Shown here in pieces: positions 6,019 to 44,636 of a DNA stretch of 44,636 nt. The stretch lies in the UHGV virus genome UHGV-0349104; one strand, given 5' to 3'. The notes beneath the pieces are model-generated. The model did not search any database and was not told the DNA's origin. It saw only the letters and a list, made by a program, of their open reading frames with translations. How positions within the stretch are numbered: position 1 is the first letter of the stretch; every line of letters begins with the position of its first letter. The position numbers were made by a program, and so were the translations under genes. Origin of the DNA: a virus.

Positions 6019-6379
6019 CGTGTGGGTGAGCCAGTTCGAACTGTCAGAGGCCATCGGTGACGTGGGGGCGGTCATCCTCTGCGCACAGTGCGGTGGACGT
6101 TCATACTTTATCCCCCGGAAGCCCACAGGTTTTCTTCTGGAGTTGCTTGGTCGGCAGCGTATGGCGGCCCTCTGCACCGAATTTGGGGGGATGCAGATCG
6201 TCGTGCCCAATTTGCGCCGTGGTGAACCGTTCAAAGGACGTATCCTGTCCCGTCTGGAAGCAGGGGAGAAGCCGGACGCCATCGCCGAAGCCCTTGGCGT
6301 GACCACCAGGTACGTCCGTCGGCTCAAAAAGCAGCTTTGCGGGAACCCGGAACCACAGCAGCAATATCGGCTGTTGTAG
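6011..6379 (+). CDS. Mor/C family phage transcriptional activator (second copy)
   Basis: LCTEFGGMQIVVPN signature plus HTH AIAEALGVTTRYVRRLKK. Confidence 0.55.
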   Translation: MSDVWVSQFELSEAIGDVGAVILCAQCGGRSYFIPRKPTGFLLELLGRQRMAALCTEFGGMQIVVPNLRRGEPFKGRILSRLEAGEKPDAIAEALGVTTRYVRRLKKQLCGNPEPQQQYRLL

Positions 6380-6397
6380 AATCTTGTTCACGGTGAT
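6379..6397 (+). promoter_or_regulatory. conserved boundary motif GAATCTTGTTCACGGTGAT (copy 1 of 4)
   Basis: Shares exact 12-mer TTGTTCACGGTG with copies at 12145, 20736 and 22123; sits between activator gene and lysis cassette. Confidence 0.5.
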
Positions 6398-8192: not shown

Positions 8193-8721
8193 TTGGGAAT
8201 CCATCCGGGCCGAGTACGAAGTGGGGGCGAGCCAGTCCGATCTGTCCAAGCGGTACGGTGTGAGCCGGACGGCCATCCAGAAGCGCATCCGGGCCGAAGG
8301 CTGGGTGCAGGATATTTCCGGCACCGTGAACCGCATGGCGGAGGCCAAGGTTGCGGGCGTGGTTGCAGGCTGCAACACTCAAAAAAAGGCCGAAGCCCTG
8401 AACCGCGCCGCCGAAGCCAAGGCCGCCGTCATCACCCGCCACCAGCGGGAGTGGGATCGGCATCAGGCCCTCATTGATGAGGCGTTGTCCCTGGGCAGCT
8501 TCGAGAAGGCCAAGCTCGCCAAGATCACCGCCGAGACGATCAAGATCAGGCAGGAATGTGAGCGTAAGGTGTGGGGCATCGTGGACAAGGCCGCAGTGGA
8601 TCATACGTCGTCCGACGGCTCCATGTCTCCGCGTCCGGTCGATCTCTCTCGTCTTTCCCCGGATGAGCTGCTCCGGCTGACGCGGGAGGCGTTCAGGGAG
8701 ACGGGGCGGGATGGCGGGTGA
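8176..8721 (+). CDS. terS: terminase small subunit
   Basis: N-terminal HTH (QSDLSKRYGVSRTAIQKRIR), coiled middle; overlaps terminase large subunit start. Confidence 0.55.
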   Translation: MAARFDWESIRAEYEVGASQSDLSKRYGVSRTAIQKRIRAEGWVQDISGTVNRMAEAKVAGVVAGCNTQKKAEALNRAAEAKAAVITRHQREWDRHQALIDEALSLGSFEKAKLAKITAETIKIRQECERKVWGIVDKAAVDHTSSDGSMSPRPVDLSRLSPDELLRLTREAFRETGRDGG

Positions 8722-11700
8722 AGTGCTTGCGGAAATCCGCCGCGCGCTGGCCCGGAGCTGTCTCGCGGCCTTTGTGCGCTACACCATGCCCGGCTACCGC
8801 ATGGGCTGGGTGCACGAGGAAATCTGTTCCGAGCTGGATGCCTTCCTTGCCGACGTCGTAGCCGGGCGTTCCCCGCGCCTCATGCTGACCATGCCGCCCC
8901 GCCACGGGAAAAGCGAGCTGGCCTCCCGCCGCTTCCCGGCCTACGCCTTGGGCCGCTATCCCGATCTATCCGTCATTTCAACGAGCTACGCCGCCGACCT
9001 GTCCTCGCGCATGAACCGCGACGTTCAGCGCGTCATCGACAGTCCGGAATACCGGGAACTCTTCCCGGGAACAGCCCTTTACGGCAAGAATATCCGCACC
9101 GTGGGGAACGGTTCCTACCTCCGCAACTCGGATATATTCGAGGTAGTGGGGCACGCTGGATGCTACCGTTCCGCTGGCGTGGGCGGCGGCATCACGGGCA
9201 TGGGTGCGGAATGCGTTGTCATTGGAACACAAATTGCGACTCCTGACGGAGATCGCGCTATCGAGACCCTACAAGTCGGGGATAACGTGCTATCATACAA
9301 TCATCAAACGGGGGAAATTGAAACTGATATAGTGATAGCGGTAAAGGATCGATATGCAGAAGAAAGCTACCGATTACGCGATGCCCTTGGCAGAGTTCTT
9401 GAAGTTACAGGAAACCATCCGATCTTTTCACGGGGGGAATATACCCCTGCATCATCAATTGCCACGGGTGATCCTATCTTGTGCCTGGTGTGGCCTGGAG
9501 TTTGTGAGGCCGGCTTATGTGGTGGCCAAAAATATCAGGAAGGGGATGAAAGATTTCTACTGCTGCAAGGAACATTCTTGTGCCCATCATGCAGTCAAGA
9601 ACAGCAAGACGTGCCCCGGTTGTGGACGGATCATCAAACACACAGGGAGAACCAAAGGGGCAAAGACCTGCCCGGAATGTGCCGCAAAATTCAAGAAGCC
9701 GAGCCAGGTCCCTGTCGAGCATCAGCCCAGAGAAAAAATTTGCCCTATCTGCAACAAGCTCTTTATGTCTGCCCACAGGGGACGCGGTATTTTTGCCAAG
9801 TATTGCAGCAAGCGGTGCAGCGAAATTGCACACTCTATTCTGATGTCTGGCAAGGGGAATCCCCGATACCGTCACGGCATGACTCCCTTGCGGGAACAGG
9901 TGCACTCTGCGCGGGCATTCCGACAGTTTCGGCCTTTGATTTTAGACAGGGATCAGCATCGTTGTGTTCTATGTGGCAAGGAGGAAACACGGTTGGAGGT
10001 TCATCACATGGATCTTATTCCGATCAACAATGTTGCGACAAACTTGATTACGCTGTGCAGCAAGTGCCACAGGATCTTGCACGGCATGAAAGAAGAACAG
10101 TACAAGCGGGACATATTGCCAACATTGCGCGAATATACGGAACAGCACGCCGTTTTGTTGATATCCAAGTAGCACGTAATCAGAACTTCTTTGCCGGCGG
10201 TGTCCTTGTCCACAACTGCGCTATCATCGACGACCCATTCAAAGATCGGGCGTCCGCCGATTCCCCGACCATCCGCCAGAACGTCTGGGACTGGTACACG
10301 TCCACGTTGTACACGCGCCTCGCGCCCGGTGGAGGGGTGCTCATCATCAACACTCGCTGGCACATGGCTGACCTTTCCGGGCGGCTGCTTGAGGCCGCCG
10401 CACGGGGGGAGGGCGACCACTGGCGCGTGGTAAACTTCCCGGCCATCGCCACGGAGGATGAGCCGCACCGCAAGGCAGGTGAAGCCTTACACCCTGAACG
10501 CTACCCGTTGGAGCAGCTTCTTGCCATCAAGAAAGCCCTCGGCACACGCGACTGGGAGGCCCTGTACCAGCAGCGGCCTACGCCAGACGGCGGCGCCATC
10601 TTCAAATCCGAGTGGCTGCGGTTCTGGCTCCCCAAAGACCTGCCGGAGCAGTTCGACCAGCTCCTTATCTCGTGGGATATGACGTTCAAGGACGGCGACG
10701 ATACCGACTTTGTTGTGGGGCAGGTGTGGGGCCGCAAGGGGGCAGACCGCTACCTCCTCGATCAGGTCCGGCGGCGCATGGGATTTACGGACACGGTCGC
10801 CGCGTTCCGGGAGCTCGCCGCCAAATGGCCCGGCGCAACCCGCAAGCTGGTGGAAGACAAGGCCAACGGCCCGGCGGTCATCGACGCGCTGAAACATGCC
10901 GTGCCCGGTATCATCCCCGTGGAGCCGGACGGCAGCAAGACGGCTCGCGCCCATGCTGTGACTACGTTCTTCGAGGCCGGGAACGTCCTGCTCCCGCACC
11001 CTGAGCATTGCCCGTGGGCGCGGGAGTACGTCGCGGAACTGACACAGTTCCCCGGTGCGCCCCACGACGATCAATGTTTTGCTGCAGGCACTTTAGTTGC
11101 GACTTTGCGAGGGGGTATCCCAATTGAAAAAGTAAAGGAAGGTGATTTTGTTGTGACTCCTCAAGGGTTTAGGCGTGTGTTGTTCGCTGGAAAAACCGGA
11201 GAGTCTGTGTTATTGTATCGACATGGAATTTTTGCAACTGCGAATCATCCGTTCATGAAAACCAGTGGAGAAGTTTGCAAATTTGCAGAAATAGAAAAGT
11301 CTGAACTTGTTCACATGACTATAAGGGAGTTGCTAGTATGGATATTCCGAAAAGAGTTGAATTTAATGGCGTCACCTATGCCCTCATGGCAGGGGGGAAA
11401 TACTATCTTAGTCAGTCAAAAACAAACGCAGGTAGGAAAAATCCGAAGGGGCTTCATGTCGCTATTTGGGAATACTACAGTGGCAAGAAAGTCCCTAAAG
11501 GGTATGAGATTCATCACAAAGATGGTAATACACATAACAACAATTTTGACAACCTTGAGTGTTTATCACGTTGTGAACACCGCAAAACGGTTAAGCAAAA
11601 CAAAGAAAAATGCCGTAAGCACCTTGAAGAAGTACGCCCTCTTGCTACTGAGTGGCACAGGAGCGAAGAAGGCCGTGCATGGCATCGAGAGCAAAGCAGG

Positions 11701-12139
11701 AAGGCATACGCAAAAAGAGAGTATACTGAGCATGTTTGTGAGTACTGCGGCAAGACGTATAAAACGCGCCATACGGGAAAAAACCGCTTCTGTTCCCATA
11801 ATTGTGAAATCAAATGGCGATATCACAATGAATACGAGCTTGCCGAGGGTGTGTGCCAATGGTGCGGCAAACCGTTCACATACAAGACCGGAACCTGCAG
11901 AAAAAACAAAGTACGTAAATTCTGCAGCAAGTCTTGCAGCACAAGCCACTTCAACGCCCAACGCCGTGCCAGTGTATAACCTCACCGTAGAGGGCGAGCA
12001 CCTTTATTTTGCTAATGGGGTGCTCGTCCACAATTGTGACGCCACCACTCAGGCCCTCCGCGACTTCGACGCCAAACGCCCCATGTCTATCAATCCTGCT
12101 ATCCTCACTCAACCACGTATAGGGTATCGCTTCCGGTAA
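8711..12139 (+). CDS. terL: terminase large subunit precursor carrying two inteins
   Basis: N-terminal ATPase (MPPRHGKSE Walker A-like, IIDDPF Walker B region) and C-terminal nuclease region; 1142-aa ORF leaves about 487 aa of extein after removing the two inteins. Confidence 0.8.
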   Translation: MAGEVLAEIRRALARSCLAAFVRYTMPGYRMGWVHEEICSELDAFLADVVAGRSPRLMLTMPPRHGKSELASRRFPAYALGRYPDLSVISTSYAADLSSRMNRDVQRVIDSPEYRELFPGTALYGKNIRTVGNGSYLRNSDIFEVVGHAGCYRSAGVGGGITGMGAECVVIGTQIATPDGDRAIETLQVGDNVLSYNHQTGEIETDIVIAVKDRYAEESYRLRDALGRVLEVTGNHPIFSRGEYTPASSIATGDPILCLVWPGVCEAGLCGGQKYQEGDERFLLLQGTFLCPSCSQEQQDVPRLWTDHQTHRENQRGKDLPGMCRKIQEAEPGPCRASAQRKNLPYLQQALYVCPQGTRYFCQVLQQAVQRNCTLYSDVWQGESPIPSRHDSLAGTGALCAGIPTVSAFDFRQGSASLCSMWQGGNTVGGSSHGSYSDQQCCDKLDYAVQQVPQDLARHERRTVQAGHIANIARIYGTARRFVDIQVARNQNFFAGGVLVHNCAIIDDPFKDRASADSPTIRQNVWDWYTSTLYTRLAPGGGVLIINTRWHMADLSGRLLEAAARGEGDHWRVVNFPAIATEDEPHRKAGEALHPERYPLEQLLAIKKALGTRDWEALYQQRPTPDGGAIFKSEWLRFWLPKDLPEQFDQLLISWDMTFKDGDDTDFVVGQVWGRKGADRYLLDQVRRRMGFTDTVAAFRELAAKWPGATRKLVEDKANGPAVIDALKHAVPGIIPVEPDGSKTARAHAVTTFFEAGNVLLPHPEHCPWAREYVAELTQFPGAPHDDQCFAAGTLVATLRGGIPIEKVKEGDFVVTPQGFRRVLFAGKTGESVLLYRHGIFATANHPFMKTSGEVCKFAEIEKSELVHMTIRELLVWIFRKELNLMASPMPSWQGGNTILVSQKQTQVGKIRRGFMSLFGNTTVARKSLKGMRFITKMVIHITTILTTLSVYHVVNTAKRLSKTKKNAVSTLKKYALLLLSGTGAKKAVHGIESKAGRHTQKESILSMFVSTAARRIKRAIREKTASVPIIVKSNGDITMNTSLPRVCANGAANRSHTRPEPAEKTKYVNSAASLAAQATSTPNAVPVYNLTVEGEHLYFANGVLVHNCDATTQALRDFDAKRPMSINPAILTQPRIGYRFR
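9212..10216 (+). mobile_element. intein 1 in terL
   Basis: N-terminal Cys (CVVIGTQIATPDG), block B VTGNHPIF, C-terminal GGVLVHN followed by Cys+1; inserted between GMGAE and CAIIDDPF. Confidence 0.75.
9354..10172 (+). CDS. free-standing HNH endonuclease with zinc ribbons, alternate frame inside intein 1
   Basis: HNH motif RLEVHHMDLIPINNVATNLITLCSKCH; repeated Cys ribbons; ends 4 nt before intein C-terminal block; true start may lie downstream of 9354. Confidence 0.65.
   Translation: MQKKATDYAMPLAEFLKLQETIRSFHGGNIPLHHQLPRVILSCAWCGLEFVRPAYVVAKNIRKGMKDFYCCKEHSCAHHAVKNSKTCPGCGRIIKHTGRTKGAKTCPECAAKFKKPSQVPVEHQPREKICPICNKLFMSAHRGRGIFAKYCSKRCSEIAHSILMSGKGNPRYRHGMTPLREQVHSARAFRQFRPLILDRDQHRCVLCGKEETRLEVHHMDLIPINNVATNLITLCSKCHRILHGMKEEQYKRDILPTLREYTEQHAVLLISK
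11075..12034 (+). mobile_element. intein 2 in terL
   Basis: Begins CFAAGTLVATL, block B TANHPFM, ends YFANGVLVHN plus Cys+1; AT-rich interior. Confidence 0.75.
11338..11979 (+). CDS. free-standing HNH endonuclease with zinc ribbons, alternate frame inside intein 2
   Basis: N-terminal NGVTYALMAGGKYYLSQ..GYEIHHKDGNTHNNNFDNLE (HNH_3-like), then CEYCG..FCSHNCE and CQWCG..FCSKSCS ribbons; own RBS AAGGGAG. Confidence 0.7.
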   Translation: MDIPKRVEFNGVTYALMAGGKYYLSQSKTNAGRKNPKGLHVAIWEYYSGKKVPKGYEIHHKDGNTHNNNFDNLECLSRCEHRKTVKQNKEKCRKHLEEVRPLATEWHRSEEGRAWHREQSRKAYAKREYTEHVCEYCGKTYKTRHTGKNRFCSHNCEIKWRYHNEYELAEGVCQWCGKPFTYKTGTCRKNKVRKFCSKSCSTSHFNAQRRASV

Positions 12140-12144
12140 ACTCC

Positions 12145-12161
12145 GAACCTTGTTCACGGTG
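12145..12161 (+). promoter_or_regulatory. conserved boundary motif GAACCTTGTTCACGGTG (copy 2)
   Basis: 6 nt after terL stop and 34 nt before portal start. Confidence 0.5.
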
Positions 12162-12194
12162 TAAATTCTTCTTCGCTCATAGCATGATGCCCTC

Positions 12195-14520: not shown

Positions 14521-16236
<1,716 letters not shown>

Positions 16237-16895: not shown

Positions 16896-17909
16896 ATGAA
16901 TCCGACTTTTGAACAGGCCAAGCGCTACGGCTTTATCTTCCCGGGCGCCCGCATGTGGGCAACCCCGGAGAACCGCGCTCGCATCGCGCAGGACGCCGCG
17001 CTCATCACTACTCCGAACACGACCGTCCCCGCCGAGCTTCTGGCGTATATCGACCCGATGGTCATCGAAATCCTGACCGCGCCCCGGCGCGCCCGTGAAA
17101 TCTTCGGTGAAGAGAAGAAGGGCGATTGGACGACCCCGTACATGAAGTGGCGCGTGGACGAAATGACTGGAAAGACCGAGCCGTATTCCGACTATGCCAA
17201 CGGCACGACTTCGGGCGTGAACTCCGAATGGCAAACCCGCGTGCAGTACGTCTTCCAGACGTCCATCACCTACGGAGACTTTGAAGTGGACATGTCGAGC
17301 ACGGCGAAAGTTAACCTCGCTGCCTCCAAGCAGCGTGCGGCCGCCAACGTCATCGACATCGACCAGAACCGTTTCTACCTGCTCGGCGTCGCCGGGAAGG
17401 AAATCTACGGCATCCTTAACGATCCGAACCTCCCTGCTGCGATCACCGCAGGGGCCACGGGCACGGGCGGCTCCACGAAATGGGCCGACAAGACCACGGT
17501 GCAGATCTACAATGACGTCCTCGCCCTGTTCGCGCAGCTTTCCGAGCAGTCCAGCGGCCTCATTGACAAGGACACGCCCCTCAAGCTCTGCCTCTCCCCC
17601 GAACTGGCCGTTCGCCTCGGCGCGGCTACCGATTTCAACGTGTCCGTGCTGGATATGTTGAAGCGGTACTTCACCCGCATTGACATCGTGACCGTCCCCG
17701 AGCTGCACAGCATGACCGCCGGGGAAACCATGTTCCTCATCGCCCCCGAAGTGAACGGGCAGCGATCCGGCACGCTGGCCTTCGGAGAAAAGATGCGTGC
17801 TGGACGCGTCGTGCCCGACCTGTCCAGCTTCCGTCAGAAGTTCGTCGGCACCACCTACGGCGGCATCGTGCTCATGCCCTTTGCCTTTGCGCAGATGACA
17901 GGCATGTAA
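16896..17909 (+). CDS. major capsid protein
   Basis: 337 aa, RBS GGAGG, last head gene followed by strong terminator; size and position typical. Confidence 0.55.
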   Translation: MNPTFEQAKRYGFIFPGARMWATPENRARIAQDAALITTPNTTVPAELLAYIDPMVIEILTAPRRAREIFGEEKKGDWTTPYMKWRVDEMTGKTEPYSDYANGTTSGVNSEWQTRVQYVFQTSITYGDFEVDMSSTAKVNLAASKQRAAANVIDIDQNRFYLLGVAGKEIYGILNDPNLPAAITAGATGTGGSTKWADKTTVQIYNDVLALFAQLSEQSSGLIDKDTPLKLCLSPELAVRLGAATDFNVSVLDMLKRYFTRIDIVTVPELHSMTAGETMFLIAPEVNGQRSGTLAFGEKMRAGRVVPDLSSFRQKFVGTTYGGIVLMPFAFAQMTGM

Positions 17910-17932
17910 AGCTGCTGCCTTCCCCCCATGCG

Positions 17933-17972
17933 AAAGCCCCAACCGTTAAACATGCGGTTGGGGCTTTCTTTA
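17933..17972 (+). terminator. rho-independent terminator after capsid gene
   Basis: 10-bp stem GCCCCAACCG/CGGTTGGGGC, loop ttaaacatg, followed by TTTCTTT. Confidence 0.7.
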
Positions 17973-17984
17973 CGTAGTCAGGCG

Positions 17985-18206
17985 TCATTTTCCAAGCGGC
18001 TGTATATTTGCGTCCAGCCACATCTCGACTGCTTCCCGTACTACCTGTGAGCGTAGGATACCCCTATCCGTACATACATCGTTCAGCCGTTCCCAGACAT
18101 GATCCGGCATAGATACAGTCTTTACTGTTGCACGATTTTCAACCTTTTTTTTACGTCCAGATCCTTTACGGCGTCCACCCTGCTTTTTTTCTTGTGCATC
18201 ATTCAT
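17985..18206 (-). CDS. ribbon-helix-helix (CopG/Arc-like) DNA-binding protein
   Basis: RATVKTVSMPDHVWERLNDVCTDRGILRSQVVREAVEMWL matches RHH pattern; basic N-terminal tail; GC about 50%. Confidence 0.45.
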   Translation of the reverse strand: MNDAQEKKQGGRRKGSGRKKKVENRATVKTVSMPDHVWERLNDVCTDRGILRSQVVREAVEMWLDANIQPLGK

Positions 18207-18300
18207 TTGTTGAATCTCCCCTCATCAAAAAGCTATCTTCTTCCCACTGGCTGCGCCAGAAATACCCGTGTATCCTCTTTTCAGTAGAGACGTATTCTTT

Positions 18301-18345
18301 GACATCCTCCCCCTGAAGGGGGAGGTTTTACGGCGCGTTGGATAA
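18301..18345 (+). repeat. 45-nt GC-hairpin repeat element, copy 1 of 5
   Basis: gacATCCTCCCCCTGAAGGGGGAGGTTTTACGGCGCGTTGGATAA; perfect 8-bp stem CCTCCCCC/GGGGGAGG followed by TTTTA. Confidence 0.7.
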
Positions 18346-18362
18346 GATCGTCGATGTCTATC

Positions 18363-18863
18363 TTAGTCTTCCTCTTCATCGTCTTCCTCCGTTGCCGCTT
18401 CCAGCTTTATGAACTCGGGAAGAACCGCAATGCTGCCGCATTCGTCATCCATTTCAACAGCCTTGAAGCCGAGCTTACGGGCAAAGGCGATCCGCATGGC
18501 CTGAGCCTCCCAACTTGCGTCATCGTCGTCCATATTGAGGAGGTTTACCCAGTCTTCATCTTGATAACCAATTTTCTCTTCAACCACGGCATACCAGCAG
18601 AGATCAAAATACTTTTCGTCTATACCGCGCTCTGCCATAACTTCACGTAGAGCCGTTCCAGCAGCGCCATCTTCAAGATACGGGAGATCCTCGTTCAAGA
18701 AGATGTCCTTGATGTCTATTTCGCACTGGTAGACGTAATTTCCGTATTCCTTTGCATGTCCGTAAGTACGGGCAAAGAACACCGCGCCGAAGTTATACCC
18801 TAACCCTGTTCCTGAGTTAGAGATAGCCAGATGTTCAATCATGCTTCCGTGGTATAGCTTCAT
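18363..18863 (-). CDS. DUF3990-like protein, possible ADP-ribosyltransferase-like fold
   Basis: N-terminus MKLYHGS (H-G-S motif), Tyr-rich FFARTYGHAKEYGNYVY, acidic tail EEDDEEED; start at ATG 18863 behind RBS AAGGAGAAG. Confidence 0.45.
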   Translation of the reverse strand: MKLYHGSMIEHLAISNSGTGLGYNFGAVFFARTYGHAKEYGNYVYQCEIDIKDIFLNEDLPYLEDGAAGTALREVMAERGIDEKYFDLCWYAVVEEKIGYQDEDWVNLLNMDDDDASWEAQAMRIAFARKLGFKAVEMDDECGSIAVLPEFIKLEAATEEDDEEED

Positions 18864-18876
18864 GGTGGCTTCTCCT

Positions 18877-20007
18877 TTACCCTTTCGTTGAAAATACAAT
18901 AGCACCATTTTTTGAAAAAATAAACAATTTTTCAAAAAAAGTTTTATCGTATTTCAAGGCCGTAGCCCGGATTCGATCCGCAAAGGGGATAATATCTTCC
19001 AATTTTTCGATGTCTTCCTTTGCGTCCTTATTCTCCCCATCAAACAGTCCGACCCTCCACTGTTTTCCGTTGAAATACAGACGGCACAGAGGCTTGAGCC
19101 TGTTGTCGTCAAGAAGGATAGAGCAGTAGCTGATACTGTCCCGCATGGCTACGCGCCCCGGATCAACGGTGCCCACCAGAAGCGATTTGACAAGGTAATA
19201 CGCCTCTTTTTCTTCCTCGGTGGTGACTATACGCGAATCCTGCTCTTTTCCTTGTGGGGCATCTTCGGATTCTATCTCTACAATTTCCGGTTTCTGCTGC
19301 GTCATGGCATTTTTCAATCGGTCGTTGATGCGGTCGTTGATGAACTGGTCAAGCGCAGCGGTAAGGATTGGAGTGAAGCGATCCAGAACGTTTTGCGTGA
19401 TACGCCCATCATACGTCTGTCCGATGAAAAAGCGTGCGAAATCTTCGTGGGGCGTTTCCATCTGTTCCCCCATGATGCGCTTGAACTCACGGTTGTACTT
19501 AAGTTCGTTTGCCGCGCTCATGCAGGCGTCTCGATTAAATTTGCCTTTTGCCAGCTTGCGCAGTTCCGGAAGCAGCATTTCATCCATATCGTCAAGGACG
19601 AACTCCATATAGGGTTTGCTGTCCATTTTGTTTGCTGCTTCAAGGTCGGAATAGAACCGGTAACGGTTGCCGTCCGTCAGAATGGCAATGGGGGCTTCCG
19701 TCCCGTGGAAGTAAAGCTGGAGCTGGTTGCAGTGCTTCATGTCAAGAGACGTGCCCAAAGCCTTGCATTCCAGAAGAAGGATAGGCTTGCCGTCAACAAG
19801 AATCGCATAGTCCACGCGGGCGTCCTTATATTCGCCGATGGGGGCTGAAAATTCGGGCACGACTTCCGCAGGGTTGAAAACGTCGTATCCCAGGGCCGCG
19901 ATGAAAGGCATCACCAAGGCGTTTTTCGTGGCCTCTTCGGTCTTGAGGCTATCTCCCAGATTCTTTACCTTTTTCGACAATTCAGCAATTCTTTCCGAAA
20001 AATCCAT
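18877..20007 (-). CDS. HsdR_N-type PD-(D/E)xK nuclease-like protein (stand-alone type I R N-terminal domain)
   Basis: EEATKNALVMPFIAALGYD...ARVDYAILVDGKPILLLECKALG matches type I HsdR N-terminal nuclease-fold pattern; about 250 aa of unassigned C-terminal sequence; GC about 47%. Confidence 0.5.
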   Translation of the reverse strand: MDFSERIAELSKKVKNLGDSLKTEEATKNALVMPFIAALGYDVFNPAEVVPEFSAPIGEYKDARVDYAILVDGKPILLLECKALGTSLDMKHCNQLQLYFHGTEAPIAILTDGNRYRFYSDLEAANKMDSKPYMEFVLDDMDEMLLPELRKLAKGKFNRDACMSAANELKYNREFKRIMGEQMETPHEDFARFFIGQTYDGRITQNVLDRFTPILTAALDQFINDRINDRLKNAMTQQKPEIVEIESEDAPQGKEQDSRIVTTEEEKEAYYLVKSLLVGTVDPGRVAMRDSISYCSILLDDNRLKPLCRLYFNGKQWRVGLFDGENKDAKEDIEKLEDIIPFADRIRATALKYDKTFFEKLFIFSKNGAIVFSTKG

Positions 20008-20704: not shown

Positions 20705-20727
20705 CGCCGCCCTCCGCCCCGAAAGGG
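20705..20727 (+). terminator. putative small terminator hairpin
   Basis: GCCCC-GAAA-GGGGC followed by TTTTCTTTT. Confidence 0.3.
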
Positions 20728-20735
20728 GCTTTTCT

Positions 20736-20752
20736 TTTGCCTGTACGAACCT
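20736..20752 (+). promoter_or_regulatory. conserved boundary motif GAACCTTGTTCACGGTG (copy 3)
   Basis: Immediately right of island 1 and 65 nt upstream of BRO gene start. Confidence 0.5.
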
Positions 20753-20816
20753 TGTTCACGGTGTGCCCCCACGCCGCCATGCTGCATCATCTCCAAAACA
20801 CTATGGAGGTGCAGCG

Positions 20817-22120: not shown

Positions 22121-22122
22121 CC

Positions 22123-22139
22123 GAACTTTGTTCACGGTG
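22123..22139 (+). promoter_or_regulatory. conserved boundary motif GAACTTTGTTCACGGTG (copy 4)
   Basis: 3 nt after Rha stop, 56 nt before first tail-module gene. Confidence 0.5.
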
Positions 22140-22194
22140 ATTTCGTCCCGGCTCTTTTGCCATGATGACCAAAACAACGGAGGGATACAGAGAT

Positions 22195-37116: not shown

Positions 37117-37205
37117 GTTCTCCTCCAGAAAAAGGAAAAGCCCCTTTCGGGGCTACTTCGGTTCGTGCTTGTTTGCGGGGACGCATACGGCAACTACCGT
37201 ATGAT

Positions 37206-37251
37206 TTATCCAACGCGCCGTAAAACCTCCCCCTTCAGGGGGAGGATATAA
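37206..37251 (-). repeat. 45-nt GC-hairpin repeat element, copy 2 (minus orientation)
   Basis: TTATCCAACGCGCCGTAAAACCTCCCCCTTCAGGGGGAGGATATAA; terminator-like on minus strand just downstream of the Cys-rich operon. Confidence 0.7.
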
Positions 37252-37293
37252 TAGGGCGGCATGATCGCCGCCTTCCTAAGCCGTTCCAGTTCG

Positions 37294-37575
37294 TCAAGAT
37301 ACTCCTGAGCTGTCATTGGTTCGTTCCCCCGGTATATTTGTTTCAAAGTCGTTGCATATCCCTCGTGCAGCCACACAAAAATTGTGCAGGTCGCAAAAGT
37401 AGGTTGTTTGGTGTGTGTAGCTGGAGTAGCGCCCCACGTGCTTGCAAAACCTGCACTCATTCTTTTGACGCGGCCTGTAGCCACATGCATTCTGCCTATC
37501 CCGCACAAGTTCCCGTTCGAGCTTGTGGGCTTCTGTGAGGGAGTTGACCACGATTACGATTTGGGGTTCAGGCAT
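37294..37575 (-). CDS. small Cys-rich protein (third of overlapping trio)
   Basis: Start ATG 37575 behind strong RBS GGAGGAGAGAGG; 7 Cys including CRFC. Confidence 0.45.
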   Translation of the reverse strand: MPEPQIVIVVNSLTEAHKLERELVRDRQNACGYRPRQKNECRFCKHVGRYSSYTHQTTYFCDLHNFCVAARGICNDFETNIPGERTNDSSGVS

Positions 37576-39021: not shown

Positions 39022-39251
39022 GGCGTTACTCCGTTGAACTCTTTCAATGTTCCGTCGCTCCATATGACTCTGTGGGTACTGTTCTCAGAGTCTACAATGA
39101 CGAACACGATGTCCTTCTTCTGCTTCTCTGAAAGTATCCCGCTCATCTCACCAGACCTATACGCAAGATGCATACAGAAAAAGAACATGATGAGCGCGTA
39201 AACCATCCCCATAAATTTTGAGTTCATGAATTTTGCGAAGGAGCTATTCAT
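38985..39251 (-). CDS. small membrane protein
   Basis: N-terminal TM MGMVYALIMFFFCMHLAY; Pro/Thr-rich C-terminus; AT-rich. Confidence 0.35.
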   Translation of the reverse strand: MNSSFAKFMNSKFMGMVYALIMFFFCMHLAYRSGEMSGILSEKQKKDIVFVIVDSENSTHRVIWSDGTLKEFNGVTPCPTPTPSQTSD

Positions 39252-39332
39252 GGTTGCCCTTATTCTTAAGTTTCTTCATCAGCTTATACAGGAGGGGCGC
39301 TTTACCGTCTTCTCTGTCGCGTTCATCTTCTT

Positions 39333-39377
39333 GACATCCTCCCCCTTAAGGGAGAGGTTTTACGGCGCGTTGGATAA
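39333..39377 (+). repeat. 45-nt GC-hairpin repeat element, copy 3
   Basis: GACATCCTCCCCCTTAAGGGAGAGGTTTTACGGCGCGTTGGATAA; two substitutions against copy 1. Confidence 0.7.
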
Positions 39378-39471
39378 AGCGAGTATCTTTACCAACATGC
39401 TGAAATTACTCGGTTATTTTCAATGACAAATGTTCTCGGAAGCCGTGTGCTGACCATTCAAAGGAGGGCAA

Positions 39472-40449
39472 GTGATGATAAAAGATGTTTCCATTGAACT
39501 TATTCAGAAGTGTGTGAACCATTGTATTCATTGCTCTTCCTGCTCAACAGAGGAATCAGTTGCGATGCTGGATATCGACACGATGCGCCGGGTCATTCGG
39601 ACACTCCAAGGGCTGAAGGTCGAGAGGGTCTGCCTTTCCGGCGGCGAGCCGTTTCTACATCCCAATCTGTTGGAAATCGTCAGACAGTTAGTCGGCTGCG
39701 GCATGACGGTGGACGTATACTCTAGCGGGATCCTGAAAGAGGAAGGGGCACCAGAACCGTTGTCCCTTGAGCGGCTGTCCCTTATGAAGGACGCCGGATT
39801 GAGGTCACTCCTGTTTAATGTGCAGTCGGTGGACGACCCCACCTATGATCGTATCACACAGAGCAAAGGGCATTTCCCCTTGCTGCAGATGAGTATTGCC
39901 AACGCCATCGCCTGCGGAATTCGAACGGAAATTCACTTTGTCCCCATGCGGCAGAATGTACATGAAGCAGAGGCAGTGATCCGATTTGCTGAGCGGACAG
40001 GGATAGAACAGGTCAATTTTTTGAAGCTGGTTCCTCACGGGCGCGCCCAGGAAAATGCGCAGAGTCTGATGCTCAGCGATGAAGAGCTGGCGGCACTGTG
40101 TTCCCGCCTGGAGGATTTGCAGACTCAGGGAAAATCCATCCGGTTGGGATTGCCTCTGTCCATTCAGGGAAATACTCCGCCATGCCACGCGGTGAGAAAA
40201 AAATTATACATTAAATTCGACGGTTCGGTTTTTGGATGCGAGGCGTTTAAATATATTCAATTCCAGGATGAAAACGGAAGCCCCGTTTTACCCAGCAACA
40301 TCTTGGAAAAGGACATCGAGGAAATCTATTACAACTCTGAGTACTTGCAGCGGAGCCTCAAACTTGTGGAACATTATGAAGCCTGCAAGATTGGCTGCGA
40401 AAATTGTCCGGTGCAGAAGTATCTGAAAGATGGGGAGTTGTCAAAATGA
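39472..40449 (+). CDS. radical SAM enzyme with SPASM/twitch-type C-terminal Cys cluster
   Basis: CVNHCIHC (CxxxCxxC) at residues 15-22; GGEPFLHPNL SAM-binding-like; C-terminal CHAVRKKLYIKFDGSVFGC (Cx12Gx4C) and CKIGCENC; GC about 48%; RBS AAGGAGGG. Confidence 0.7.
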   Translation: MMIKDVSIELIQKCVNHCIHCSSCSTEESVAMLDIDTMRRVIRTLQGLKVERVCLSGGEPFLHPNLLEIVRQLVGCGMTVDVYSSGILKEEGAPEPLSLERLSLMKDAGLRSLLFNVQSVDDPTYDRITQSKGHFPLLQMSIANAIACGIRTEIHFVPMRQNVHEAEAVIRFAERTGIEQVNFLKLVPHGRAQENAQSLMLSDEELAALCSRLEDLQTQGKSIRLGLPLSIQGNTPPCHAVRKKLYIKFDGSVFGCEAFKYIQFQDENGSPVLPSNILEKDIEEIYYNSEYLQRSLKLVEHYEACKIGCENCPVQKYLKDGELSK

Positions 40450-40976
40450 GCTACGAAATCAATGACCGAACGTTAATCACTGAGCTGCGCGACAAGATCC
40501 CTAGTGCTGTGAAGGTTAGATACGACGAACTTGAGACAGAGCTGAAAGAAAAAAAGCTGAAGTTACCGGAGAATTTCACCCATCCTCTTGATAAAGAAAT
40601 CATCGGGGAAGGCGGGAAATTGGCAAAGCTTTTATCGGAACAGGAGAATGCGATTTCCTATTCCAAAGCGGGCGAATTAGCCCACCTGTGGCGCACACTA
40701 CTCGATAAATCAATTGTATGCCTCCGATATTTAGACACTCGGGAGCCATTTCAGGAGAATCCGAATAAGGTTATTGTGGCCTATGGGATAGACAAATTAG
40801 AAGAATACCACCGGCGATATACAGAATTTGAAAGTCTCATGTACGGCTCAAACGCCCATTATCGGGATCATGTGTTTCACGCGATCCGGGTTTGGATGTT
40901 GGGCGTGTACTGCATGCTGACGGATTTCAATAACAGCGTCGGAAATCAGACGGGTCATGAGGTACATCGTATCTAA
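40446..40976 (+). CDS. radical-SAM partner protein, possibly 3'-truncated (HD- or HEPN-like)
   Basis: ATGA translational coupling; C-terminus HYRDHVFHAIRVWMLG looks like the start of an HD motif or an Rx4H motif; stop overlaps a convergent minus-strand ORF. Confidence 0.4.
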   Translation: MSYEINDRTLITELRDKIPSAVKVRYDELETELKEKKLKLPENFTHPLDKEIIGEGGKLAKLLSEQENAISYSKAGELAHLWRTLLDKSIVCLRYLDTREPFQENPNKVIVAYGIDKLEEYHRRYTEFESLMYGSNAHYRDHVFHAIRVWMLGVYCMLTDFNNSVGNQTGHEVHRI

Positions 40977-41148
40977 ACCATGAAGGACTGGTATTGAAAA
41001 CCTCGTTGTCGACCATCCCGGTTAAGACTGCGTGAATCGTTTTAGAAGAAATTCCGGTTTCTCCGTTGGCTAACCACATCTGTTCCCGCCATTGCTGTGG
41101 AAGCGAAAGTATCTCAGCCGTGTAATCCCCGTACAAATCAACACTCAT
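40927..41148 (-). CDS. hypothetical small protein
   Basis: 73 aa; RBS GAGGTGAG; high GC; last gene of leftward recombination operon. Confidence 0.35.
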   Translation of the reverse strand: MSVDLYGDYTAEILSLPQQWREQMWLANGETGISSKTIHAVLTGMVDNEVFNTSPSWFRYDVPHDPSDFRRCY

Positions 41149-41161
41149 GATTCATCTCACC

Positions 41162-41407
41162 TCATATGCTTGTGAGCCTATACTTTTCATTGAGTACAAA
41201 GGCTTCCCCACGATGACCGGGAAGCCGTTCCGCCGTGTTTGGGAATTTCAAACGAAGAATCACCTTGCGCCCTGTCTGTTTTGAAAAACGTTCGGCTGCG
41301 GGAAGACTATCCCACGCCCTGACGGGCGGAAGAATGCCCCCCGAATCCTTGTAGCGTTTAAGCTTCTTTACCGTGGTCACATGCCATACGATCATAGTCT
41401 TTCCCAA
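41162..41407 (-). CDS. hypothetical small protein
   Basis: 81 aa between Gp157 and last operon gene. Confidence 0.35.
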   Translation of the reverse strand: MGKTMIVWHVTTVKKLKRYKDSGGILPPVRAWDSLPAAERFSKQTGRKVILRLKFPNTAERLPGHRGEAFVLNEKYRLTSI

Positions 41408-41441
41408 AAGAAAGGCCCGGTGGTGAGCCGGGCCGGGGTGG

Positions 41442-43940: not shown

Positions 43941-44341
43941 AGCGACAATGCGCGTTGCGCCGAACCATGCGGGGCGGTGAATTGTCAGAAAGTCAACTGA
44001 CCGCCCGGATGTAGAAATTCGTATTTCATCACGTTTCACGGCCCGATCTTTGTGTCGTAACCGTGGGCCCTGTTGGTCGGCTCGGCCCCCGTCGCTTCGG
44101 TGCGCTTTGCGCTTCGGCCTTCTTTTCAGCCGTTTTTCCGTCCCGCCGTCCCTACGCGGCCTGTCTCCACATCACCAGCCTGTTGCCCTTCTTTCTCGCG
44201 TCCTACTGGGGAGCCTTAGCACTGGGGGGCGGCATCGTTCGGTTGCTCCATACTGAGCGGCTGGCTTCCTCCGCCGGGGCTTGTGGCTACTTTCCGGCTG
44301 GTGTGCCGGGCGTGTTCGCCTTCCCCGGGCGTCGTGAAGTC

Positions 44342-44369
44342 ATAATACCAAATGGAAACACAAAGTAAA
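44342..44369 (-). promoter_or_regulatory. sigma70-like promoter on minus strand
   Basis: -35 TTTACT, 17-nt spacer, extended -10 TGGTATTAT. Confidence 0.4.
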
Positions 44370-44396
44370 GCAAAAAGTTTTCTGCCGCCACACGTT

Positions 44397-44455
44397 TTAT
44401 CCAACGCGCCGTAAAACCTCTCCCTTAAGGGGGAGGATATAAGGCGCGTTGGATA
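44397..44455 (-). repeat. 45-nt GC-hairpin repeat element, copy 4, with outer inverted arms
   Basis: ATCCAACGCGCC-GTAAAACCTCTCCCTTAAGGGGGAGGATATAA-GGCGCGTTGGAT; outer 10-bp arms CCAACGCGCC/GGCGCGTTGG. Confidence 0.65.
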
Positions 44456-44504
44456 ATGATACCAATTGGTTGCAAAAAGTCTATGCCACATATGGTATCG
44501 GTAT

Positions 44505-44555
44505 TTACCCAGCGCGCCGTAAAGCCTCGCCCTTCAGGGCGGGGATATAAGGCGC
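44505..44555 (-). repeat. 45-nt GC-hairpin repeat element, copy 5 (diverged, compensatory stem changes)
   Basis: CCCAGCGCGCCGTAAAGCCTCGCCCTTCAGGGCGGGGATATAAGGCGC; stem C-to-G paired with G-to-C; A-to-G gives T:G wobble. Confidence 0.6.
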
Positions 44556-44636
44556 ACCTTAACTGGAATTCTTGATTTTTCCGATACCATAAGGTATGAT
44601 CTGTCGCATGGAAGCACGAATCGTTTCAGAACTCCG

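Follow-up and report, generated by a model that had tools for sequence, protein, structure and literature searches.

The virus genome UHGV-0349104, a stretch of 44,636 nucleotides referred to below as the window, holds a short GC-rich hairpin sequence at five places, and the question this locus raises is what the sequence is and why it recurs beside accessory genes. An earlier note, made from the sequence alone, had taken it for a selected RNA hairpin that looks like an intrinsic terminator and flanks cargo genes. As a whole, that interpretation is partly supported but for the most part mistaken: the repeat and its compensatory changes are real, and the identity proposed here is a different one. 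Very probably, all five copies derive from the left end (LE) of an IS605-type insertion sequence (IS) of gut Desulfovibrionaceae and their phages, and are non-autonomous. In what follows, L001 to L103 are labels of retrieved loci that are related to the window or bear the element, and ^ marks a junction or a cleavage point.

The repeat and its parent insertion sequence

When the 20-nt hairpin core was searched with up to three mismatches, nine strand-matches were obtained at five loci, which are the five places listed before; 100 dinucleotide shuffles gave an expectation of 0.00. A 16-nt flank, ACGGCGCGTTGGATAA, is matched at the same five loci and again in the second arm of copy 4, so conservation does extend beyond the hairpin, as had been claimed. 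Repeat-finder and alignment extents are 18299-18345, 37205-37251, 39331-39377, 44397-44456 and 44504-44550. The exact extents are 18299-18345 for copy 1 (in the plus orientation used by the earlier note), 37206-37251 for copy 2, 39331-39377 for copy 3, 44397-44456 for copy 4 (60 nt, nearly palindromic, its 30-nt arms 87% complementary), and 44505-44576 for copy 5.

Beyond the window, a degenerate 30-mer of the element is present in nine IMG/VR contigs. The 24-nt end occurs at 19 loci in species-representative genomes, nearly all of them Desulfovibrio, Mailhella and other Desulfovibrionaceae metagenome-assembled genomes (MAGs), with one locus labelled Desulfobulbus and one uncultured Clostridia. 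In the MAG loci, conservation ends sharply at ..GG(A/G)TAA on one side and extends on the other, where a 400-nt alignment reveals a gene ending ..EFDGEDDHVHLLV..LWGGSLWSPSYFAGSCGGAP..YIE. The open reading frame (ORF) adjoining the end is a Y1 transposase, TnpA (L010 5990-6406; Pfam Y1_Tnp, E = 2.7e-44), with homologs beside the same end in L008, L011, L017 and L022. The divergent ORF is TnpB (L010 4767-5975; OrfB_IS605, Cas12f1-like TNB and HTH_OrfB), which is also found in L005, L008, L011, L015 and L017. Several MAG contigs stop exactly 77 nt from the conserved boundary, as is typical where a multi-copy repeat breaks short-read assemblies. A generic host repeat is what the earlier note had set against its own reading, and this is essentially what emerged: a multi-copy IS, dispersed over Desulfovibrio genomes, ends in this sequence.

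Read on the top strand, in the sense of tnpB, the LE comprises TTAY^CCARCGCGCC, the guide GTAAAR and the hairpin CCTCNCCC-TTCA-GGGNGGGG, with an 8-bp stem and a 4-nt loop, and then continues as ATATAAGGCGC.. before tnpA (antisense), tnpB and the right end (RE). The RE consists of GAAT, the hairpin CCCCCG-N8-CGGGGG and AGGATG TCAA^ (end AGGATGTCAA^), and its boundary was placed from seven aligned copies at ..GGGGGAGGATGTCAA^ (also given as ..GGAATCCCCCGACTTTAGGCGGGGGAGGATGTCAA^). The parent element measures 1,757-1,758 nt, has no terminal inverted repeats, carries subterminal imperfect palindromes at both ends, and has 16 nt between the left cleavage site and the foot of the LE hairpin. The repeat of the window is this LE, seen from the bottom strand. 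The closest annotated relatives, ~64% identical over the whole IS, are IS200/IS605 elements with tnpA and tnpB that sit on enterobacterial and Xylella plasmids and also in a few phages. A divergent tnpA/tnpB pair is the IS605 arrangement, and it is seen in the parent element here.

The parent resembles IS608/IS605 of Helicobacter pylori, whose single-strand transposition is of the “peel-and-paste” kind, in its Y1 TnpA and TnpB, in having subterminal imperfect palindromes and no terminal inverted repeats, in inserting 3′ of TTAC without target duplication, in the guide AAAG directly 5′ of the LE hairpin and in a right end TCAA 10 nt 3′ of the RE hairpin. In IS608, the left cleavage site (CL) is TTAC outside the element, the left guide (GL) is AAAG directly 5′ of the hairpin, and the right cleavage site (CR), TCAA, lies 10 nt 3′ of the right hairpin (PMC3201880). 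Unlike IS608, to which its sequence is only distantly akin, the present element has 16 rather than 19 nt from cleavage site to hairpin foot, possesses a natural TTAT/AAAA subfamily, and has Desulfovibrionaceae and their phages as hosts.

A full 1,758-nt IS with tnpA and tnpB was also found in a viral contig (IMGVR_UViG_3300045988_131946, L008 10126-11887), between the large terminase gene and the next gene; the flanking genes are 96-99% identical to those of the window, which has no IS at this terminase-adjacent site. A second viral locus, L005, has a tnpB-only copy, and L007 has a 359-nt palindrome-associated transposable element (PATE). Rfam, run at gathering thresholds on the window and four IS/PATE loci, gave no match, and no known non-coding RNA or omega-RNA family was recognized.

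Short single-hairpin repeats, one of which (copy 4) is palindromic, also bring to mind the repetitive extragenic palindromic (REP) sequences and bacterial interspersed mosaic elements (BIMEs) mobilized by REP-associated tyrosine transposases (RAYTs), which are relatives of the IS200 TnpA. Both kinds of repeat have short hairpins recognized in folded, single-stranded form by a Y1 HUH enzyme, together with a conserved adjacent tetranucleotide. However, no 5′ GTAG occurs in the alignment, no RAYT or Y1 gene is present in the window, and host MAGs contain at most five matches each rather than hundreds. Moreover, the sequence is the end of a bona fide, extant tnpA-tnpB IS with defined LE and RE, and an origin as RAYT-mobilized REP/BIME repeats is highly improbable.

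The folded strand and the choice of target

In copy 5, the stem changes from CCTCCCCC/GGGGGAGG to CCTCGCCC/GGGCGGGG by a compensatory C/G swap, with one T:G pair in addition. The earlier note had read this correctly, and covariation proved to extend over the whole family: among 21 distinct sequences, pair 25-36 is U:G in 11, G:C in six and C:G in two, and pair 23-38 is U:A in 14 and U:G in seven. Across the family, 96.3% of stem cells are paired, compared with 53-69% in slid controls. The hairpin is thus a true repeated element under structural selection, with real compensatory changes.

As to the strand, the wobbles pair only on the one opposite the “GGAGGTTTTA terminator” orientation, where 96.4% of cells are paired versus 87.5%, and therefore the selected strand is not that of the terminator orientation. 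Structural selection and covariation are borne out, but a selected RNA hairpin is not supported: the substitutions pair on the opposite strand, which fits a single-stranded DNA substrate of TnpA. Folded as single-stranded DNA, copy 5 gives -15.0 kcal/mol for the top strand and -12.8 for the bottom strand, and copy 4 gives -23.5 kcal/mol (z = -7.5). For all copies, the best-pairing orientation is TTAY^CCARCGCGCC-GTAAAR-hairpin.

These observations bear directly on the proposal that the RNA hairpin is an intrinsic terminator or insulator that closes transcription units beside cargo genes. Like a Rho-independent terminator, the element has a GC-rich hairpin, with an 8-bp stem and a 4-nt loop, and TTTT after it when read one way; so read, it falls just past the tnpA stop codon of the parent IS and could end the tnpA transcript, and copy 2 faces a convergent minus-strand gene. 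Unlike such terminators, however, the tail TTTTACGG (also given as UUUUACGG) has only four T, and a consensus scan with a threshold of five T in eight called none of the five copies, while calling the phage’s own GCCCCGAAAGGGGCTTTTC-type terminators at 20716 and 37154. Furthermore, the variant stems contain C.A mismatches in the terminator orientation, and neither the 16 conserved bases past the hairpin nor the TTAY rule described below has a part in termination. Relatives lack the copies at the same sites; copy 1 lies inside a minus-strand operon whose transcript would carry the non-terminator strand; copy 3 sits upstream of a gene start rather than at the 3′ end of a co-oriented unit; and the capsid gene is already provided with a palindrome, at 17932-17968. 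A role as terminator is, in sum, very unlikely. A sigma-70 promoter with TTGACA/TATAAT at the element’s edges was also considered and rejected, as the spacing is wrong by eye and scans gave only weak matches near copy 4. The ideas of a diversity-generating retroelement hairpin and of parS were dropped, with no template/variable repeat pair present.

More telling for the element’s identity is its left flank, which is TTAC or TTAT in 36 of 40 scan matches; of the four that deviate, three are palindromic copies read on their second strand and one, L048, is shifted by a single C. In the window, TTAY has a density of 0.35% per position per strand. Being part of the target and not of the element, the tetranucleotide is picked afresh at every insertion. 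Across 32 distinct insertion sites, the pairing of flank with guide is TTAC/AAAG in 15, TTAT/AAAA in 16, TTAC/AAAA in one and TTAT/AAAG in none, so that at 31 of the 32 the final bases of the transposon-associated motif (TAM) and of the guide covary (Fisher p = 5.7e-8). As far as sequence comparison can speak to mechanism, this covariation is good evidence for guide-directed targeting, and two natural subfamilies of one IS appear to differ at the guide base, AAAG going with TTAC and AAAA with TTAT. Integration of IS608 is reported to have been retargeted in the laboratory by changes in its guide sequence (PMC5934647), and the agreement between TAM and guide at 31 of 32 independent natural sites is a confirmation of that result.

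By analogy with IS608, a Y1 TnpA would bind the folded hairpin on single-stranded DNA, and the four bases 5′ of the hairpin foot would pair with the cleavage or target tetranucleotide; the element would thereby be inserted 3′ of TTAY with no target duplication.

The target tetranucleotide bears also on the conserved reading frame that had been reported, which could conceivably encode a 13-aa peptide tail or a micro-ORF, (D/Y)ILPLKGEVLRRVG. It is true that the frame is open in all copies, that two substitutions among the window copies are synonymous, and that the frame of copy 2 is fused to a 100-codon ORF. Nevertheless, the frame simply follows from conservation at the nucleotide level: what reads as a TAA “stop codon” is complementary to the TTAY target, stops located 17-35 codons upstream show that no real ORF ends in this frame in copies 3-5, and the family as a whole yields 11 different peptides, including non-conservative changes. 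The fusion at copy 2 is an accident of truncating a longer gene, and no conserved start and no consistent upstream ORF was seen for the frame. A coding function is hardly credible.

Derivatives of the element and the five insertion sites

From LE to RE on the top strand, the family falls into size classes: the full IS of 1757-1758 nt; a tnpB-only class of 1350-1351 nt; a PATE class of 317-359 nt that keeps the last 79 codons of tnpB (L007, L013, L019, L028 and L048); a 71-nt variant in L003; and a 43-nt terminal-only form composed of LE positions 1-38 and GTCAA. The 43-nt form has the same boundaries at eight distinct sites with eight different flank pairs, namely copies 1 and 3, L002 (= L102), L004, L006, L100, L101 and L103. 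In this sampling, all eight are in phage-like contigs, and the copies in host MAGs all have a full LE. A 10-nt direct repeat, GGGGGAGGAT, is present in both the LE and the RE of the L010-type IS, and a repeat-mediated deletion of the core therefore gives exactly the 43-nt form. Copies 1 and 3 would most simply have arisen in this way; copies 2, 4 and 5 are LE-only forms.

A precedent exists in Haloquadratum walsbyi, where the 1,500-bp, IS605-type ISHwa23 gave rise to a 52-bp terminal-only PATE through a repeat-mediated deletion, and the presence of this PATE at several strain-specific sites suggests that it is still movable (PMC3119063). PATE-like elements have also been described in Geobacillus (PMC10055086). 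Like PATEs, the present elements are gene-less, retain only the near-terminal palindromes of an IS605-type element, and have an apparent origin in a direct-repeat deletion. Unlike the 52-bp Haloquadratum PATE, the smallest form here is 43 nt long, has a single hairpin for both ends, is bacterial rather than archaeal, and was sampled at its eight sites only in phage contigs, with two copies at deletion junctions.

A second type of tiny element was noted in related phage contigs: 40-nt palindromes derived from the RE hairpin (TTGACATCCTCCCCCG..CGGGGGAGGATGTCAA), which read ..GTCAA^ on both strands. They lie at L007 11815-11854, L048 573-612, and L073 4287-4326 and 8029-8068; none occurs in the window. 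At one insertion site (..TATTGTGCTTAT^), the plain 43-nt element is present in one contig (L101 4178-4224) and the 71-nt variant, which adds a partial LE/RE segment, in another (L003 5490-5564); mini-elements therefore vary in place.

Copy 5 gives the clearest view of an insertion. It occupies 44509..44576 on the plus strand as a 68-nt LE-only element of the “host-type” subfamily, CCAGCGCGCC-GTAAAG-CCTCGCCC..GGGCGGGG..CTGGAATT, preceded by the target tetranucleotide TTAC at 44505..44508 (plus), which matches its guide AAAG. Over an alignment of 70-71 nt (window 44504-44574), it shares 98.6% identity with the LE that full ISs carry in Desulfovibrio MAGs. In L001, a near-identical viral contig, the site is empty (..GGTATCGGTATTTAC^TTTACCGATACC) and the alignment skips exactly 44509-44576. 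Copy 5 is thus a clean 68-nt insertion after TTAC, without target duplication or rearrangement, and it entered the loop (TTTACTT in L001) of a 10-bp phage hairpin with its left arm, GGTATCGGTA, at 44494..44503 (plus) and its right arm at 44579-44588.

Copy 1 is a 43-nt terminal-only element of type 1 at 18299..18341 on the minus strand, with its target tetranucleotide TTAT (the TAM or left cleavage site) outside the element at 18342..18345 (minus). Its top strand, which is the window’s minus strand, reads CCAACGCGCC-GTAAAA-CCTCCCCC-TTCA-GGGGGAGG-ATGTCAA^, the LE through the 3′ arm of the hairpin being joined to the right-end terminus GTCAA. Seven relatives (L030-L033, L039, L049 and L066) align to 18298 and again from 18341, with 1,253 nt between; the missing sequence is the body of a 463-aa minus-strand accessory gene, which is intact at L031 7304-8695 (minus) and had no match in a PHROG search. 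The window retains a C-terminal remnant of this gene at 18199..18298 (minus), ..EYVSTEKRIHGYFWRSQWEEDSFLMRGDSTNE-stop, which is preceded in the intact gene by ..GGCATTAC^, and an N-terminal remnant, MKRKTKIDIDDL.., at 18346..18378 (minus); the two stubs are mutually out of frame. The intact gene of L031 reads ..GATCTTAT^CGATTTC at the left junction and ..GGCATTAC^AGAATACG at the right. Both ends of the deletion directly follow TTAY, the chance of the second doing so being ~0.35%. The capsid-proximal island in which copy 1 lies is highly variable among relatives: L043 has its own element-free internal deletion in the 463-aa gene, and L029 is without the entire minus-strand island between 17971 and 20725.

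Copy 2 is an LE-only element at 37210..37251 on the plus strand, made up of a 38-nt LE core (37210-37247) and ATAA (37248-37251), with its target tetranucleotide TTAT at 37206..37209 (plus). The ATAA is also in the relatives’ flank, and L008 6015-6056 is of the same type. On the left, homology with L075 stops exactly at ..CCGTATGGTTTAT^ (TTTAT^), and on the right, homology with L072 and L082 restarts at ATAA^TAGGGCGGC. At this site, relatives hold ~1.9-2.3 kb with three to four genes, among them a 258-aa ORF (PAPS-reductase-like by eye only) and two small genes. A truncated minus-strand gene at 37252..37508 runs into copy 2 and takes a 13-aa tail, ILPLKGEVLRRVG-stop, from the element, where the L082 version continues ..AAIMPPYY-LRKKLFFGEDEE...

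Copy 3, again a 43-nt terminal-only element of type 1, lies at 39331..39373 on the minus strand with its target tetranucleotide TTAT at 39374..39377 (minus); it is intergenic, ~95 nt upstream of the start of a radical-SAM/SPASM gene (39472-40449). The copy is 300 nt within a 2.4-kb segment (39027-41423) that is window-specific among the relatives retrieved. The radical-SAM gene has its best IMG/VR match, 49% identical, on a 125-kb contig, and has no close viral relative. A composite transposon carrying the radical-SAM island, with the minus-strand LE of copy 4 and the GTCAA end of copy 3 as its termini, was considered and rejected, because the interval holds core SSB/Gp157 genes that occupy the same place in relatives lacking both copies and because the 39027-41423 segment does not coincide with the copies.

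Copy 4 (44397..44456, both strands) has the form TTAT^52-nt LE-only hairpin^ATAA, reads as an LE either way, and is also present in L001; its setting is a variable, operator-like intergenic region. Its outer arms superficially match RYYYAAC...GTTRRRY (ATCCAAC...GTTGGAT) around a folded core, and integron attC sites too act as folded single strands, which could suggest folded recombination sites flanking gene cassettes. Yet both outer arms are present in copy 4 only, no integrase was found among the 24 distinct window ORFs covered by the protein family scans, tblastn with TnpA/TnpB found nothing in the window, and all copies are accounted for by the parent IS, the rule linking TTAY to the guide, and the empty site; that these are attC-like sites is next to inconceivable. 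The region of copies 4 and 5 (44340-44636 and 1-20) contains many inverted repeats of the GGTATC/GATACC type (ATACCAAATGG, GATACCAATTGGTTGC, GGTATCGGTA..CCGATACC and CATAAGGTATGA) and diverges among relatives just after a conserved GCCTTCCCCGGGCGTCGTGAAG; it looks like an immunity or operator region.

All five copies are in variable, accessory parts of the genome. No copy was found at the corresponding window positions in 43 loci linked to the major capsid protein or in 25 Gp157-linked loci, and copies 1, 2 and 3 in particular are missing from all of the ~60 related phage loci, so that the insertions look recent. A view of the element as a conserved part of the phage is not supported, dozens of close relatives having no copy there. 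The earlier note’s claim that every copy abuts an accessory cluster holds insofar as all are in accessory regions; a role as boundary markers is not supported, since copy 1 is in a gene, copy 2 truncates one and copy 3 is inside a segment. The association with accessory genes is better explained by insertions that survive only in dispensable DNA, or by deletions caused by the elements or TnpA.

Movement, gene loss and the phage that carries the repeats

Several points weigh against an origin of the repeats as IS605-type derivatives and belong in the balance. No tnpA or tnpB was detected in the window by tblastn; no transposase being present there, any movement needs TnpA in trans, from the host chromosome or a co-resident phage. 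A single clean empty site was found, that of copy 5, and none was found for copy 3 (no informative relative) or, among viral contigs, for copy 4. The covariation alignment includes many sequences that are kin by descent. In the 43-nt form, GAAT, the guide of the RE, is missing, and the hairpin is preceded 5′ by AAAA (or, in an alternative register, ACCT), which puts in doubt the cutting of its GTCAA end by TnpA. Copy 5 ends in ..CTTGAT and copy 2 in ATAA, neither of them GTCAA, and no canonical right-end cleavage accounts for the origin of these two LE-only copies. Finally, the RE-LE circle junction (GGATGTCAA^CCAACGCGCC) is absent from assembled viral contigs, in which such junctions are not expected to assemble.

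Whether the copies also drive accessory-gene turnover, as portable homology or as TnpA substrates, is a further matter; this would be an added consequence and not an alternative identity. In its favor are the 1,253-nt deletion at copy 1, with TTAY^ at both junctions, and copy 2, which joins an L075-like left flank to an L082/L072-like right flank with ~1.9 kb of genes gone. In L008 (6015) and L103, moreover, window homology begins 17 nt and ~2 nt, respectively, from the element’s end, and the other flank is unrelated; the phage also encodes a single-stranded DNA-binding protein (SSB) and a Gp157-type recombination module. However, insertions may simply survive only where the genome is dispensable and mosaic already; copy 5 went in without any rearrangement; and the deletion in L043, which involved no element, indicates that the 463-aa gene is deletion-prone anyway. 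Only about six junctions were sampled, and no phage pair was found carrying copies at both parental positions. Such a role in turnover is possible but, on balance, doubtful.

We infer that the element was the means by which sequence was lost at copies 1 and 2. For copy 1, two routes are conceivable, either recombination between two copies at the two TTAY sites or a one-step joining by TnpA of the cleaved right end to a cleaved downstream TTAC^. Mobilization of the 43-nt form in trans, as a unit, would likewise account for its recurrence with constant boundaries. A stronger proposal, which we regard as tentative and on the unlikely side, is that this single-hairpin form is an active, trans-mobilized transposon and that TnpA acting on it also makes adjacent deletions, from the right end to a downstream TTAY^. 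If true, the 43-nt form would be the smallest member of IS200/IS605, a living intermediate between IS ends and REP-like repeats, and it would directly drive accessory-gene loss and mosaic junctions in Desulfovibrio phages.

With regard to the carrier, the window has a G+C content of 56.6% and is, by its gene content, a myovirus-like phage genome. It encodes a large terminase (8711-12139), a head protease (14524-16236), a major capsid protein (16896-17909), a DnaB-like helicase, a tail sheath, a tape measure protein, a baseplate protein, SSB and a Gp157-type protein. L001 continues unbroken from window position 44636 into position 1, and the window is therefore a complete, circularly permuted genome. 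A near-identity search with 17000-20000 retrieved nothing from phage or E. coli collections; the IS605-family ends, together with the G+C content, point to Desulfovibrionaceae as host.

Some features of this genome are unrelated to the repeats. At 1,142 aa, the large terminase ORF is of unusual length; its matches to terminase PHROGs are split into separate stretches, and a helicase-like PHROG is matched by residues 164-256. An insertion, an intein or a fusion could account for this. The head-protease/scaffold gene contains an 89-nt direct repeat (76% identity) at 15463-15551 and 15610-15698, 147 nt apart, which is probably an internal domain duplication. The plus strand has four copies of a 19-nt motif, CGAACCTTGTTCACGGTG(T/A), at 6378-6396, 12144-12162, 20746-20764 and 22122-22140. 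Three of the four lie 8-33 nt upstream of likely gene starts (6404; 12195, directly after the terminase; and 22162), and the one at 20746 is just past the terminator at 20716. The motif is kept in L008; it may be a late promoter or another regulatory signal.

The repeats are, then, a known kind of selfish DNA, PATE-like miniatures from the Desulfovibrio mobilome, and they should be annotated as IS605-family ends or PATEs and not as terminators, peptides or cassette boundaries. Debris of a single-strand transposon builds up in the variable regions of a gut phage lineage, and at least twice it lies exactly at a gene-deletion junction, which offers a testable route by which IS ends could remodel the accessory content of phages.

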